From Vezdaea acicularis (taxonomy: Eukaryota): 64,000 nucleotides of DNA. Where the stretch lies: positions 310,001 through 374,000 of the forward strand of contig JAPEUI010000002.1 of NCBI GenBank assembly GCA_026025075.1, read 5' to 3'. A model generated the notes under the pieces. That model was not told the DNA's origin, ran no database searches, and saw only the letters and a program-made list of their open reading frames with translations. Shown piece after piece: positions 50,633 to 56,001 of this stretch. Within the stretch, counting starts at the first letter, position 1. Every line of letters begins with the position of its first letter. The position numbers were made by a program, and so were the translations under genes.

Positions 50633-51336
50633 CTTGAAGCACTCCCTGAAGCCGAAGTATAGGGCAATGTCCTTTACTACGTCGGAATACAGATGGTTAG
50701 AGTGAGTTTGACGCGTATCCCGACAGGTCGGAGACGATGCACGCGAAGCGTTAGCGTTCACTCTCTTCCCTTGAACTTATCAGACGCTGCATATCTTATT
50801 ATCATCTGACCTGAGCATACAATATAGAGTATCTAACACAGTCGCAATCCAGGTGCGCTGGAGGTATGCAATGCAAAAACGCCTCAAAGACCAAGGGCCA
50901 TTTCACACATCGCTGGATGACAGGTAATGGAGCGTATATTGACGAGTTGGGTGTTTGTACTCCTTTCATTAGCTTTTAGCTCTCAAATGCTGAGACGGTA
51001 TAGTCTTGAGTGGCTTCAGCATTGTCAGAAAGCTCCTCTTGCGGTATTTGCGGCTACCAAAGGTTAGTGTGACGTCTTTGAACCCCTACTCAAAGCTTTA
51101 GTGACCAAGCTGTCTGACTGACAGATGCTTTCAAGCGTACTCTTGGGAAAAGTGAATTTTCGCTTATGGTCGATGACCGTCGCGTCTTCGTCCTCGAAAA
51201 CCGCGTTGTGCCCCGCCTATTCACCTACCTCCATCCCATCCAGTACAAATCAGCTAATTTTCGCTTCGCGTAAATGATCTTTCTAATTCATCTCCACTCG
51301 ATGCAGTGAACGTTCAATAATCAACTGATCGCAGCC

Positions 51337-53502
51337 ATGCCTTCCGCCGCTGAAAAGCCGATGTTTGCTAAGGACGAGAAAGTTCTTTGTTTTCATATGG
51401 CCTTCCTCTACGAAGCAAAGATCCTCGACGTAAGGACAACTTCGGGAGCTGAGAAGCGAGGTGAATGGGAGTATAAAGTCCACTACAAAGGCTGGAAGAA
51501 TACGTAAGTTAAGCAGATCCGATTGGTTCCCTCTGCAAGCTTCCTGCTTGCGTCTTAGTTTGTTCCTGTCATCGTTTCTTTGTACATATCTCTTTCAGAA
51601 TCTTTTACTTTGGGCCGTCTCCATAGATAGCGCGCATAGTGCCCATGTGATTAGCACATGGGCTACTTCTCTTAAAGTCAGGTGGCTATTGTATGAAAGA
51701 TCCCCTCAGAGTCTATCAAATCTGGTCGATTGATCTACTGCAGATGAAGTCAATCTCATCATAGACGAATATCACTGGATAGGGCCTGGAGGCTTACAAA
51801 GACTAATACTGATGTCGCGTATTTCTAGCTGGGATGATTGGGTTCCACAAGATCGCGTGCGAAAGTATTCGGAGGAGAATATCGAGCTCGCTCGTAATAT
51901 CAAGAAGGATGCGGAGAGGAACGATCGAGCAAAAAGGGCCGCTGCGAAGAAAACCCGAGGTGGCGGCTCTGAGTTGAGCTCCACGCGTGGTAGTGAAGAG
52001 AGGCATTCCTCCGTACAAGCGTACAGTGGTCGAGGCCACAAAAGGGGGCGTGACTATGAGATCGAGAAGGTTAGCAGTCCAATGTCTATTTCCTCCGATA
52101 TAGCAGCTGTCGTAAGTCGTTCTTCGTCGAAGTCGAAGAACGAATCCTCTATTTCTTCTGTTTTCCAAAAAATGCGGACCGCAATTGGATCCGAGGACCA
52201 AGAAGTTAGTGACGCGGACATCATTCCTCTGAGCTCTGCGACGGATGAAGGCTGCGACGGACTTGGAGACTTGGCCTCGAACGATGCTAGCAAGGGCAAG
52301 ACGGTTCCCCAGCTAACCCTGAATGGTGGCCCTGAACCAATCATCTTCGGCTCATCGCGTGCCGCCTCCAGGGTACCCCCCCAATTTGTTTTCAGCACGA
52401 CTAGGGCAACAAACCTCTTCGCCGTGGCACAGTCGGCGCTTTCGTCACCTGCGTCGACTCCACCGCGAAGCTCTCAACTGTCTGACCCTTCTGGATTTGA
52501 AGCTCCAATTTCCCCGGATACTCAACCCTCCCCAAGCCTTCGTTATCCACGACAACCCTACCGTCTCCGCTGCACCGTGGAAGGCCGTCACGAGCTACCA
52601 TCTCCAAACAGCCATAACGGCCCGCGTATCATTCACTCCAAGCTCAGCACATCTTCTAACTCTGTACATCCCAAGCTCATTCGTCTCGGCAAAGAGGATT
52701 CTTACAACGTCGCCAAACGGGCCTTTTTCCAGGACCAGGATCCAAAAGCCGTAATCATGATTGCCGGACGAGCCCGCGAACGCCGGATGAACGGGCGAAA
52801 TGGCCATAGGTCTGGATTTACGAGTGCCGGCCGAGCCAGCGAAAGAAGAGTGAACCAACAAATCGCTAATATGTCTGATTCTCAGGAAGATGGATTTCAT
52901 ATTCGCCCATCCGTCCGTCTTGTGATCCCTGATCACCTCAAGGCTCTTCTGGTCGATGACTGGGAGAATGTTACTAAGAATCTCCAACTTGCTCCGTTGC
53001 CTTCCAAGACACCGGTCAACTTCATTCTTTCTGCGTACTATGAGGAAGAGCTGCCAAAGCGTGCTCCTGGGTCTGGCGAAGCAGATACTCTCGAGGAAAC
53101 GGTGCAAGGAGTGAAGGACTATTTCGCAGCTTGTATCGGCCGCATCTTGCTCTACCGCTTCGAGCGTGAACAATTTTTTGAGTTCCGCAAGCTCTGGGAG
53201 GCTGGTGTGGGTGAGTGGGAGAATAAGGGACCGGGTGATGTCTATGGTGCTGAGCATCTGTGCCGCCTCTTCGGTGGGTTCTTTTCTTCTCTCATCATCT
53301 TTCTCTCAACCCTAACGTTGGCTTCCTAGTGAGCATGCCAGAACTCATTGCCCAAACCAATATGGACGCCCAGTCAACCTTCCGCCTCAAGGAGGAACTC
53401 GCCCGTCTGACCACCTGGCTTGGAAAGAACAGCAAGAAATTCTTCACTGAAGAGTACGAGAGTGCCAGCCAGGACTACATTGAAAAGGCTCGTGGCAACT
53501 AA
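51337..53502 (+). CDS. EAF3: Chromodomain/MRG protein Eaf3 (NuA4/Rpd3S); 322 aa fully spliced
   Basis: Chromo barrel [38 protein letters not shown] domain [30 protein letters not shown]; introns 51504-51828, 52070-52885, 53274-53329. Confidence 0.95.
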
Positions 53503-53826
53503 GGCTTTGGTCTCCTTGGTGAGCTAGTGATTGCTTTTTCCTTTTCCTTGGTATTTTGAACAACGGGACTAGGGATGGATATGCATTTCAGCCATTCCAG
53601 CGATTTCAGCATGGGACAGCCCTTTCTTTGGCGGGTGGGATGCATCTTTCTCTGCGGGATTGGAATTCGGTGGACTTCAGCAAGGGAAGTGGATAAATGA
53701 GAGTAGGGTTGTCATAGTATTCAAAGCTCACGCATCCTTAAGATGGAATGACATATCTCGCTCTCTAAACACCTCATCATCGCCAGTCACTGCACCCGTC
53801 TGAAACCCATCTCGGATTATCTTGTT

Positions 53827-56001
53827 CTACCTCACTCTAACCATCTCCCCAACCTCAAACCCCACCCGCCGTAACACCCTCTCCTCGATCTCTCTCCCCT
53901 CCCCATCTCCCCTCTTGATCAACACGGCCCCAACCCCATTCCTCTCCCGATTCTTGACCTCCACCTCCCCACCCTGTCTAGTCCGCTGTCCACTCTCCCC
54001 CACATTCTCCCCATCCCCACTTCCACTCCCATCCCCTTCGTCAGGCCCCTCCCTCTTCCCCGCCACGCCCCCAACCCACACAACCACATCCGGCCCTACA
54101 ACCCCTCTCCACAGCGTCGCCGCCCACTGCCAATGATCCAGCGCCGAGTAATTATCCTTGATGGGGGCGGAGCTCGCGAAGGCGTTCGCCCGCGTCAATT
54201 GGTACCCTGGAATAAGGAGAACCGGCGTCTTCGGCGACTCCGCCTGCACCACCGGCGGCGCGACCGTCTTCGGACTGATCCCAGAGGAGGGCGTTGGTGG
54301 CGGAGAGGGCGCGCGGGTGATGTAGCTGATGAGTGAGGGTGTGAGGGCGTGCCATTCGCTGATTTCGAGGAGGTAGGCGTGGATTGAGGAGTTGCGGGGC
54401 GTTTCGATATGTCGTGGGGGATACCCTGCGAGGGGCACCGAGGCGGGTGAGTTCGGAGAGAGGGTGGTTCGCTCGCGGGGGGTATCCGGCTTGGGCTCTG
54501 CGAGGTTGTGGATGGCGCATTCGCCGGAGGTGCGGAGGGTTTTTTCGAGGTAGGCGGTTACGGTGGCGATGCAGGATTCGTCTTCGCCGTCGATGGCGAC
54601 GATGCAGCCGCGGGGTTTGGGGTTGGGCGGACTGGTGCTGGGAGCGGCGAGAGGGGGGGAGACTTTGGAGAGGAGGCGGATCTTGTTGATGACGGGGATG
54701 GTCTTGATCATTGCTTCGATGCTGCGGGGTTGGGTTCCGTCGAAGGGGCTGCTTAGGGGGGAGGTTCGGATGGGGGGGAGCGTGACGGATGATGTGGAGG
54801 TATAGGGCGGGCGGGGTGGTGGGCCCATGCCGTGCTGGATTCGGAGGGGGGACTCGCTCCTGACGGGTGATGGGTAGGGCAGGTTGGTGCTCAGACGGCG
54901 GCGCTTGGGGTCGGGGGATGTTGGGGGTAGCTCTCCTGAGGAAGTGGAGTTGCGGAAGGACGACTTGAAGGGTGAGATCTGGGGAAGGCCCATGTCGGAT
55001 GAGTGGTGGAGCGTACCATATCCCGCCCAGGGCCGAGTGCGCGGGAAGGGAGTGCGGGGGGTGTTCACTGAGGGGATATAGCGGGGTGTAGACATGCTGG
55101 AGCGGGGAATGGAGGTCTGCTGAGGGGTGAAGGGGGTCACCGGGGTGTTTGGGTCCCGGACGCGCTTTCCGCACTTCTCGCACATAGGGTGGTTGGCCTC
55201 GTCTGTAGGGCCGTCGGCGGCGTTAGGAATAGTTATGAAGGCGAGTGCTTTTTTGCTCTTGCGTTTAGGTTGATATTTGTAGTCCGGGTATTGCTGATTG
55301 TGGCGCGATTTCTCCTCCTTGGTCATGTGAGGCTTTTGGTGATATGAGAAAGGGGGAACGGCATACCTCTGCCAGGGAGTCCCATTGCTCACGTACTTCC
55401 GCGGGTTCTTCCCGCCACTGTTTCCCGATGATCTTGGATACCTCTGGGTTCGCTAGCCCCGGATTCTGCGCCACTATGGCTGACTGGAAATGCTGTCGAT
55501 ATAACATGAAAGCTGGGGTGAATGTGAGCATGGGATGGGGTTTCTGATAGCATATTCGATAAGAAAGTAACATAGTCCGCCCGAACCACGAAGATGCTAG
55601 ACTGAGAAGAACACAGGATGCTAAATATCTAACATACCGTTTCGCGGTCGGGGGACCTTCCGCTCAGGGGCGCAAATACAGATGTTACTCGCAGGTTCCG
55701 CTATTCCAGCACTGGAAGGAGTCTTCGGGGATGATATTGAGGCCTCGAGCTGCCTCTTACTACCTGCAACCGCTGAGCTCGTGGTTGCCGCTGATTGGGT
55801 CGTGGTCAAATGGAGAGGAGGAGGCTTCGAGGCTGGTGAGGCCGAGTTGGCTCTCCTCTGAGGTTGAATGGACGACCGCTGCTCAGAATCCGTAATCGTT
55901 ATTTTGCTGAACTCAGACGGCTTCGGTCCTTCTTGTGCCTGTCTCTCCGAGCTTGAAGCGGCGCTAGATGAGGCCGGTGCTCTCCCTTCCTTTGCAGGCA
56001 T
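53827..56001 (-). CDS. MATA-type HMG-box transcription factor, Rox1/Rfg1-like (not MAT1-2-1)
   Basis: KVPRPRN|AFMLYRQH..NPEVSKIIGKQWREEP..EEEKSRHNQQYPDYKYQPKR after introns 55513-55637 and 55318-55366; long Pro/Ser-rich middle and C-terminal DHWQWAATLWRGVVGPD block. Confidence 0.88.

Follow-up and report, generated by a model that had tools for sequence, protein, structure and literature searches.

The EAF3 gene of Vezdaea acicularis, located on the forward strand of a 64,000-nucleotide (nt) stretch of contig JAPEUI010000002.1 (the whole of which is referred to here as the window), appears to contain an exitron-like translatable intron at positions 52070–52885. We think it rather probable that this segment, which lies at an ancient intron site, can be either removed or kept, yielding a canonical Eaf3 of 322 amino acids (aa) in the first case and a long form of 594 aa in the second. 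The gene probably makes both the normal and the long protein.

Members of the Eaf3/MRG15 family are readers of histone H3 methylated at lysine 36 (H3K36me) and subunits of the Rpd3S and NuA4 complexes; they rank with the best-studied chromatin readers and are known chiefly from work on budding yeast, fission yeast and animals. Exitrons, or exonic introns, were reportedly described in Arabidopsis and human by Marquez et al. in 2015. No description of a long isoform, an exitron or a linker module in a fungal Eaf3 was found in the literature, subscription journals being outside the coverage. What appears to be new is that a well-known chromatin reader has, at an ancient intron site, an exitron-like element that holds a novel conserved module. 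If this is true, a splicing-gated coding segment beside the MRG domain would add an unrecognised control of complexes of the Rpd3S/NuA4 type within the largest filamentous fungal group, and the EAF3 segment would represent a concrete case of a deeply conserved translatable intron in fungi.

Gene structure and coding signal of the segment

The exon 1 peptide (window 51337–51501) matches the Pfam families MSL3_chromo-like (PF22732, E 4.7e-12) and Tudor-knot (PF11717, E 1.7e-5), and the start of exon 2 gives a weak tail match to the chromo-barrel profile (E 0.053). The MRG family (PF05712) is matched by exon 2 (E 1.6e-39) and by the last exon (E 1.2e-10, profile positions 146–190). The first part of exon 2 (80 aa) aligns end to end with orthologues, in which it is followed either directly by the MRG domain or by an insert, while at the site of intron 3 orthologue models join CRLF to VSMPELIAQ. 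The segment is contained in a long open stretch (51829–53273), has coding flanks on both sides, and preserves the reading frame whether removed or retained. The spliced junction agrees with the short orthologues, and 322 aa is the canonical size of Eaf3. The donor of the segment, GTTAGC, deviates from that of intron 1 (GTAAGT).

The initial annotation had proposed an intron at these coordinates with a GTTAGC donor, a GCTAAT branch sequence and a CTCAG acceptor, its 816 nt amounting to 272 stop-free codons, and all of this was confirmed in the sequence; the two product sizes it had given were reproduced by translation. Its description of the insert as Ser/Pro/Arg-rich also holds (S 17.6%, R 8.5%, P 8.1%; net charge +8).

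Outside frame 0, the segment at 52070–52885 has 9 and 14 stops in the two remaining plus-strand frames and 4, 8 and 16 in those of the minus strand. Frame 0 was open in 3 of 20000 dinucleotide-preserving shuffles of the segment (approximately 1.5e-4), and the probability of an open frame calculated from the stretch's own base composition is 3e-5; by the shuffles, the chance of 2e-6 first quoted, which assumed uniform composition, was about two orders of magnitude too extreme. The openness is well beyond chance for one pre-specified frame. The G+C content of the segment (0.537) is like that of the flanking exons (0.52–0.54) rather than that of introns 1 and 3 (0.43–0.45); intron 1 has 7, 9 and 1 stops in its three frames and a G+C content of 0.434. 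Both the rarity of open shuffles and the base composition argue against a plain intron which is always removed, its open frame being due to chance or to a decaying relic and the long protein never being made. We consider this alternative, to which we return below, very unlikely.

Coding potential was measured by a log-odds score of codon usage, trained on six long open reading frames (ORFs) elsewhere in the window, with stops ignored. Frame 0 of the segment scored 0.027 and the other frames -0.034 and -0.086, compared with 0.10 and 0.16 for the flanking exons and about -0.02 for every frame of intron 1. The core of the peptide module described below scored 0.106, which is exon-like.

Unlike an ordinary unconstrained intron, the window copy combines a length divisible by three, an open frame and a conserved peptide. 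It resembles exitrons in its coding flanks, its canonical GT-AG splice signals at both ends, its stop-free length divisible by three, its exon-like composition with a coding signal, its suboptimal donor, and the fact that removal and retention both give in-frame products. It differs from them in that it lies at an ancient shared intron position and not inside an ancestral exon, in that it holds a module shared across classes, and in that its alternative use in this organism is proposed from the sequence.

The intron site and its splice signals in relatives

At E<=1e-20, a search with the MRG exon revealed 556 relatives, which carry the names Esa1p-associated factor or EAF3. The best named relatives (Candelina, Pycnora and Xylona, 78% identical) are lichen-forming and allied ascomycetes. 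In many relatives Eaf3 has 430–860 aa instead of approximately 325, and the extra residues are always found at one point, RDYEIEK / EE.FH.RP, both flanks having been located by BLASTP in every match. An open insert, defined as at least 60 aa with both flanks present, was found in 122 proteins among all those fetched, with lengths of 95–743 aa (median 239). Of the 122, 101 begin with Val (mostly Val-Gly, Val-Arg, Val-Ser or Val-Cys), while 11 inserts, from a Parmeliaceae-type group (P0102, P0107–P0109, P0112–P0116, P0118 and P0119), start with Ala-Ser; this would fit a GC-AG donor, since GCA AGT would read so, though the observation is at the protein level only. The last residue is Gln in 118. 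Altogether 112 of the first codons are compatible with a donor and 118 of the last with an acceptor, and by this pattern the Val and Gln ends are the GTN donor and the CAG acceptor read as codons. The signals at the two ends thus persist in inserts whose internal sequence is no longer recognisably alike.

Among the 86 proteins with at least 70% identity to the MRG exon of the window, 55 have a frame that stays open all the way from the chromo exon across the insert, the rest consisting of 10 canonical short forms, 11 that are partly open and 10 that are closed or cut; as with the set of 122, clustering and the length limits set in the searches have inflated this count, which must be read as "many" and not as a frequency, a point against our reading. 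Openness is, as far as these proteins go, common among the closest relatives of the window.

The insert peptide itself has a single close match in the databases, P0001 (99% identical), an ORF-type prediction from a 14-kb ENA contig. In a protein comparison it shows 3 aa differences in the 272-aa insert and none, by eye, in the flanks. It has an Ile-to-Thr change beside the branch box, and the Ala-Asn residues specified by GCTAAT in the window are retained.

The site was also studied in DNA that had not been selected for openness. Metagenomes were scanned with an alignment of the MRG exon (A1), and loci L001–L080 were picked regardless of their upstream sequence; 12 of the 80 had no upstream exon, mostly because of a contig end, and removal of duplicates left 49 distinct cases. 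In 48 of these an intron lies exactly at the ...EK / EE... site. A GT donor was read in 46 of the 48, the remaining two being boundary projections that look off, and the acceptor is CAG in 42 and TAG in six. Of 52 distinct 3' ends from related loci, 42 have a CTRAY sequence 9–50 nt before the acceptor. Intron length at the site ranges from 63 to 3020 nt, with 63–127 nt in many fungi. Because a GT...CAG/TAG intron is shared by 48 of the 49 loci, it must be an old and widely shared phase-0 intron, and the site is, on this comparison, that of an ancient spliceosomal intron in phase 0. The sole locus without an intron at this point, L039 (660–661), has contiguous chromo-linker and MRG coding sequences.

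At this site L044, L050, L052 and L055 also have GTTAG donors, and their introns must be spliced because their length is not a multiple of three. The GTTAGC donor is suboptimal but, judged by these loci, usable.

Evidence for the spliced form was sought among relatives. P0103, P0249 and P0251, from Logan-only contigs of 969–1441 nt, are complete intronless Eaf3 proteins of 323 aa in which all three intron sites are joined, and their flanks are 94–98% identical to the Alectoria long model P0110. Likewise, the intronless short form P0037 is 94–96% identical to the Sticta long model P0039, and the annotated 325-aa Lasallia protein P0034 is 95–98% identical to open ORFs of the Umbilicariaceae type. 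An ORF caller obtains a complete intronless Eaf3 only from sequence resembling complementary DNA, so the short-form contigs are of that nature. We infer that they are transcripts and that relatives make the spliced form; the contigs come from two families in which the genomic copies carry an open insert.

These data bear on the possibility of a constitutive coding insertion, that is, a stretch which is never spliced, in an Eaf3 that always has 594 aa and an expanded linker, with the GT...CAG ends as ancestral relics. Such an insertion would account for the open frame, the exon-like G+C content and codon use and the conserved module; the departure of GTTAGC from the GTAAGT of intron 1 and the reading through of the insert by many annotators are in its favour as well. 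We nevertheless hold it to be quite unlikely. The Val and Gln ends and the CTRAY box are kept across inserts which share almost nothing else, and this needs continued selection for splicing. In addition, loci that have to splice at this site do use GTTAG donors, short-form contigs without introns come from the two families with open genomic inserts, and P0001 keeps the Ala-Asn of its branch box despite the adjacent Ile-to-Thr change, as seen at the protein level only.

The conserved peptide module and other open inserts

When the window insert was compared with other inserts by BLASTP, alignment was obtained only around a module of some 35 residues, with E-values down to 3e-11. The motif was found by regular expression in 21 of 173 extracted inserts, and an iterated profile built from those recovered it in 109 of the 173. 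It is present in models from Lecanoromycetes, Leotiomycetes and Xylariales, and the longer version seen in the latter two reads W..P.S.EWDV.R.L..D..LA.D.L.KLP....Y.D..G.LK.P..Y...HPKL....NGT.T....YY......P.AG. In the open close relatives it was found in 53 of 55.

Differences between L001 and L002 in the module number 5, 3 and 20 at the first, second and third codon positions, with 26 of 34 residues identical; the corresponding figures are 11, 10 and 20 for the window and L001, and 12, 9 and 20 for the window and L002. This third-position bias indicates protein-level selection on the module and not the conservation of an RNA element. An intronic small nucleolar RNA, or another RNA, as the cause of the conservation was rejected, as Rfam gave no match at E<=1 over 51300–53550 and the substitutions are codon-like. 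The matches to distant relatives, the third-position bias, the exon-like codon score and the persistence of the module in nearly all of the open close relatives are further points against a plain intron. On these profile matches, the module is conserved across fungal classes and unannotated. Pfam holds no family for it, a single sub-threshold match to PH_trem (E 0.045) having been disregarded; there was no match among PDB sequences at E<=10; and the ESM Atlas gave scores of at most 0.78, which are leads only, with no cluster naming the module.

AlphaFold2 models were made of two relatives, P0008 (alignment A2) and P0091 (alignment A3). The predicted local distance difference test (pLDDT) values were 84–90 at residues 241–255 and 281–310 of P0008 and 91–94 at residues 151–170 of P0091, and below 50 in the rest of the insert in both models. 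The module is modelled as short helices; in the long form from the window it would lie approximately 40 residues before the MRG domain, with two short helices predicted. With Foldseek, a relative's model matched the MRG domains of Eaf3, Alp13 and MRG15 in the Rpd3S, Clr6S, Eaf3-Eaf7 and MRG15 complexes (E 1e-12 to 1e-9), and nothing outside the MRG domain was matched. A docking prediction between residues 368–553 and 240–335 of P0008 scored 0.01 and, being without controls, is evidence neither way. F-x-L-P is the motif of MRG-binding ligands such as Pf1, MRGBP and PALB2. It is absent, by eye, from the translation of the 272-aa insert of the window; the module core reads ...VIMIAG, and an L-x-L-P-like block lies upstream in more distant relatives.

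A second kind of open insert, rich in Lys, Ala and Pro and devoid of the module, is found in L009 (3212–4000, 263 aa) and L012 (1872–2648, 259 aa). Comparison of the two revealed three indels, all multiples of three (24, 3 and 33 nt). The ratio of non-synonymous to synonymous substitution rates (dN/dS) is 0.41 in the insert and 0.023 in the flanking exons, consistent with a weak but real constraint of the sort typical of disordered linkers. This suggests that these inserts are a frame-preserved, fast-evolving linker.

Interpretation and comparison with known systems

We propose the following mechanism. In the lichen-type ascomycete lineage of the window the intron would have become, or would have stayed, translatable. 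Splicing at GTTAGC...CAG would produce the mRNA for the canonical 322-aa Eaf3, and retention would produce a 594-aa Eaf3 whose chromo barrel and MRG domain are parted by a 272-aa, Ser/Pro/Arg-rich, mostly disordered linker carrying the module. Both mRNAs would be made in this organism, with the suboptimal donor letting splicing efficiency set the isoform ratio, and because of the module the long form may interact differently, be it with its own MRG domain or with a partner.

The initial annotation had suggested a splicing switch making a long isoform, with a possible effect on the choice between NuA4 and Rpd3S. Of this, a real splice pair (48/49 loci) and the coding nature of the stretch are borne out; the dual mRNAs in this organism, like the effect on complex choice, stay at the level of a proposal. 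It had further asked whether orthologous introns keep a length divisible by three, an open frame and a dN/dS below one. Many close relatives are open (55/86), L009 and L012 give 0.41, and in the unselected sample 13 of 34 introns have such a length and 3 of 34 are open. It had not noticed the conserved module, nor that the segment is a property of entire lineages and not of one species.

Several observations weigh against an exitron-like element. The 34 introns of the unselected sample just mentioned are those of at least 150 nt, and 13 with a length divisible by three represent no excess. The three that are open are L001 (483 nt) and the related L009 (789 nt) and L012 (777 nt); closed relatives from lichen metagenomes include L010 and L013, with 14–16 stops, and L017 (602 nt), L023 (625 nt), L024 (623 nt) and L032 (1220 nt), with lengths not divisible by three. 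As the sample is mostly closed, openness is a property of some lineages and not of the site. Similarity between the window insert and other inserts was detected nowhere but in the module, outside which the codon signal is also weak, the score for the whole insert being 0.027 as opposed to 0.10–0.16 in exons. Among the 355 proteins examined, no long-form transcript was identified, all the models that join exon 1 to exon 2 and keep an insert being NCBI gene models or of unknown source, and the intronless contigs seen were all of the short form; selection is therefore the only ground on which the retained mRNA is postulated. The absence of an excess of lengths divisible by three, the closed state of 31 of the 34 introns and the exclusively short-form contigs would all suit a plain intron, and so would the fact that, according to PMC3898260, stopless introns of such length are a known source of ambiguous gene models in filamentous fungi.

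Other loci are open over the 3' part of the insert. L002 has a 589-nt insert which is open in the MRG frame and shifted by one base relative to the chromo exon, through either a real indel or an assembly error; L005 has two stops near the 5' end; and the insert of L021 measures 3020 nt. In all three, the module is in frame with the MRG exon, the chromo-exon frame is broken, and 198–268 codons, with internal ATGs among them, are open up to the acceptor (242–268 in L005 and L021). Moreover, many annotated models of Leotiomycetes and Xylariales consist of the module and the MRG domain without a chromodomain (Sclerotinia trifoliorum, Lachnellula, Hymenoscyphus fraxineus, Cadophora, Xylaria grammica, Camillea, Drepanopeziza, Tricladium and Claussenomyces). 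The broken-frame loci and the chromodomain-less models fit an internal start better than they fit retention, and add to the points against our reading.

An isoform with an internal start would arise from a transcript start within the intron and would comprise the module and the MRG domain, Eaf3 itself coming from splicing and the 594-aa read-through being incidental. In its favour, the insert of the window has in-frame ATGs at codons 5 and 35. Such a chromodomain-less isoform is a serious rival or an additional product; that it should take the place of the 594-aa form as the explanation strikes us as unlikely. A start within the intron would by itself give no reason for the 5' part of the insert to stay open and in frame with the chromo exon. 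This is nonetheless the case in 55 of the 86 close relatives, and 101 of the 122 inserts begin at the donor Val. The models lacking a chromodomain are, furthermore, gene predictions: the H. fraxineus gene is annotated as two adjacent models, of 141 aa and of 477 aa with the module and MRG domain, while that of H. albidus is one fused model of 607 aa (proteins P0159, P0357 and P0358), which illustrates the trouble that the segment causes for annotation.

The module occupies another frame in L041, L070 and L075. In the last of these (668–2470), a 601-aa frame that has the module around residue 200 runs up to a GTATGT donor approximately 250 nt before the usual CAG acceptor, from which it follows that the module there is in a separate large exon, with an ordinary intron after it. 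Since frames and models differ among loci, the way in which the module comes to be attached to the MRG domain evidently varies from lineage to lineage.

A broader proposal, which we put forward tentatively and regard as possible though doubtful, is that EAF3 of many Pezizomycotina hides an ancient second product. The module, regulatory on this view, would reach the MRG domain by withheld splicing in the lichen-type fungi and perhaps by an intron-internal start in the Leotiomycetes and Xylariales, the latter giving an MRGX-like layout, and would alter which Rco1- or Eaf7-type partners that domain could bind; this would constitute an H3K36me-reader switch absent from the model yeasts.

The spliced product, with its chromo barrel, its MRG domain and its canonical 322 aa, is like canonical Eaf3, Alp13 of Schizosaccharomyces pombe and human MRG15. 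The retained form would differ from canonical Eaf3 by the addition of 272 aa and the module between the domains, and no Pfam family or solved structure covers the module. In mammals, MRGX and MORF4 are chromodomain-less MRG proteins specified by separate genes. The models from the same locus in Leotiomycetes and Xylariales, with an N-terminal region and an MRG domain and no chromodomain, resemble these; unlike them, the fungal product would be an isoform of EAF3, and the window frame is also open from the chromodomain exon. With the stopless introns of PMC3898260 the segment shares the property that annotation pipelines either read it through (430–860 aa) or splice it out (~325 aa). It differs from that class in its length (816 nt, compared with 63–127 nt at this site in many fungi) and in its conserved peptide, and so is not a mere toss-up of annotation. 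Its dual nature would explain why public gene models disagree, giving approximately 325 aa, 430–860 aa or two split genes.

The features of the gene are collected in Table 1.

Table 1. Features of EAF3 and of the candidate translatable intron (window coordinates)
Feature	Position	Strand	Description
EAF3 exon 1	51337–51503	+	ATG at 51337; N-terminal part of chromo barrel; ends AAT AC|GTAAGT
EAF3 intron 1	51504–51828	+	325 nt; GTAAGT...TAG; ordinary closed intron
EAF3 exon 2, first part	51829–52069	+	End of chromo barrel and basic linker; ends RDYEIEK
Candidate translatable intron (exitron)	52070–52885	+	816 nt = 272 codons; phase 0; 0 in-frame stops
Candidate 5' splice site GTTAGC	52070–52075	+	Directly after GAG AAG (E K); readable as Val-Ser
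Core of conserved peptide module	52667–52768	+	34 residues; from motif profile, BLASTP and codon-position pattern
Branch-point-like GCTAAT	52865–52870	+	Second A 16 nt from acceptor
Candidate 3' splice site CAG	52883–52885	+	TCTCAG ends at 52885; readable as Gln; then GAA GAT GGA (E D G)
EAF3 exon 2, second part	52886–53273	+	N-terminal two thirds of MRG domain; begins EDGFHIRPS
EAF3 intron 3	53274–53329	+	56 nt; GTGGGT...TAG; G+C 0.446
EAF3 last exon	53330–53502	+	C-terminal part of MRG domain; stop TAA at 53500–53502

At 325 nt, intron 1 is long for an ascomycete intron. Its counterpart in L009 and L012 measures approximately 235 nt and differs between the two at about 4% of positions, as against 12% in their open insert. 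On the opposite strand, a stop-to-stop frame of 541 aa (53827–55452) with a high content of Pro and Ser is placed tail to tail relative to EAF3, some 325 nt beyond the EAF3 stop codon; several long frames that overlap one another on the two strands suggest G+C-rich, stop-poor sequence. A 236-aa antisense frame (52595–53305, minus strand) overlaps the MRG exon as well as the insert's 3' end and most likely just shadows the sense coding frame.

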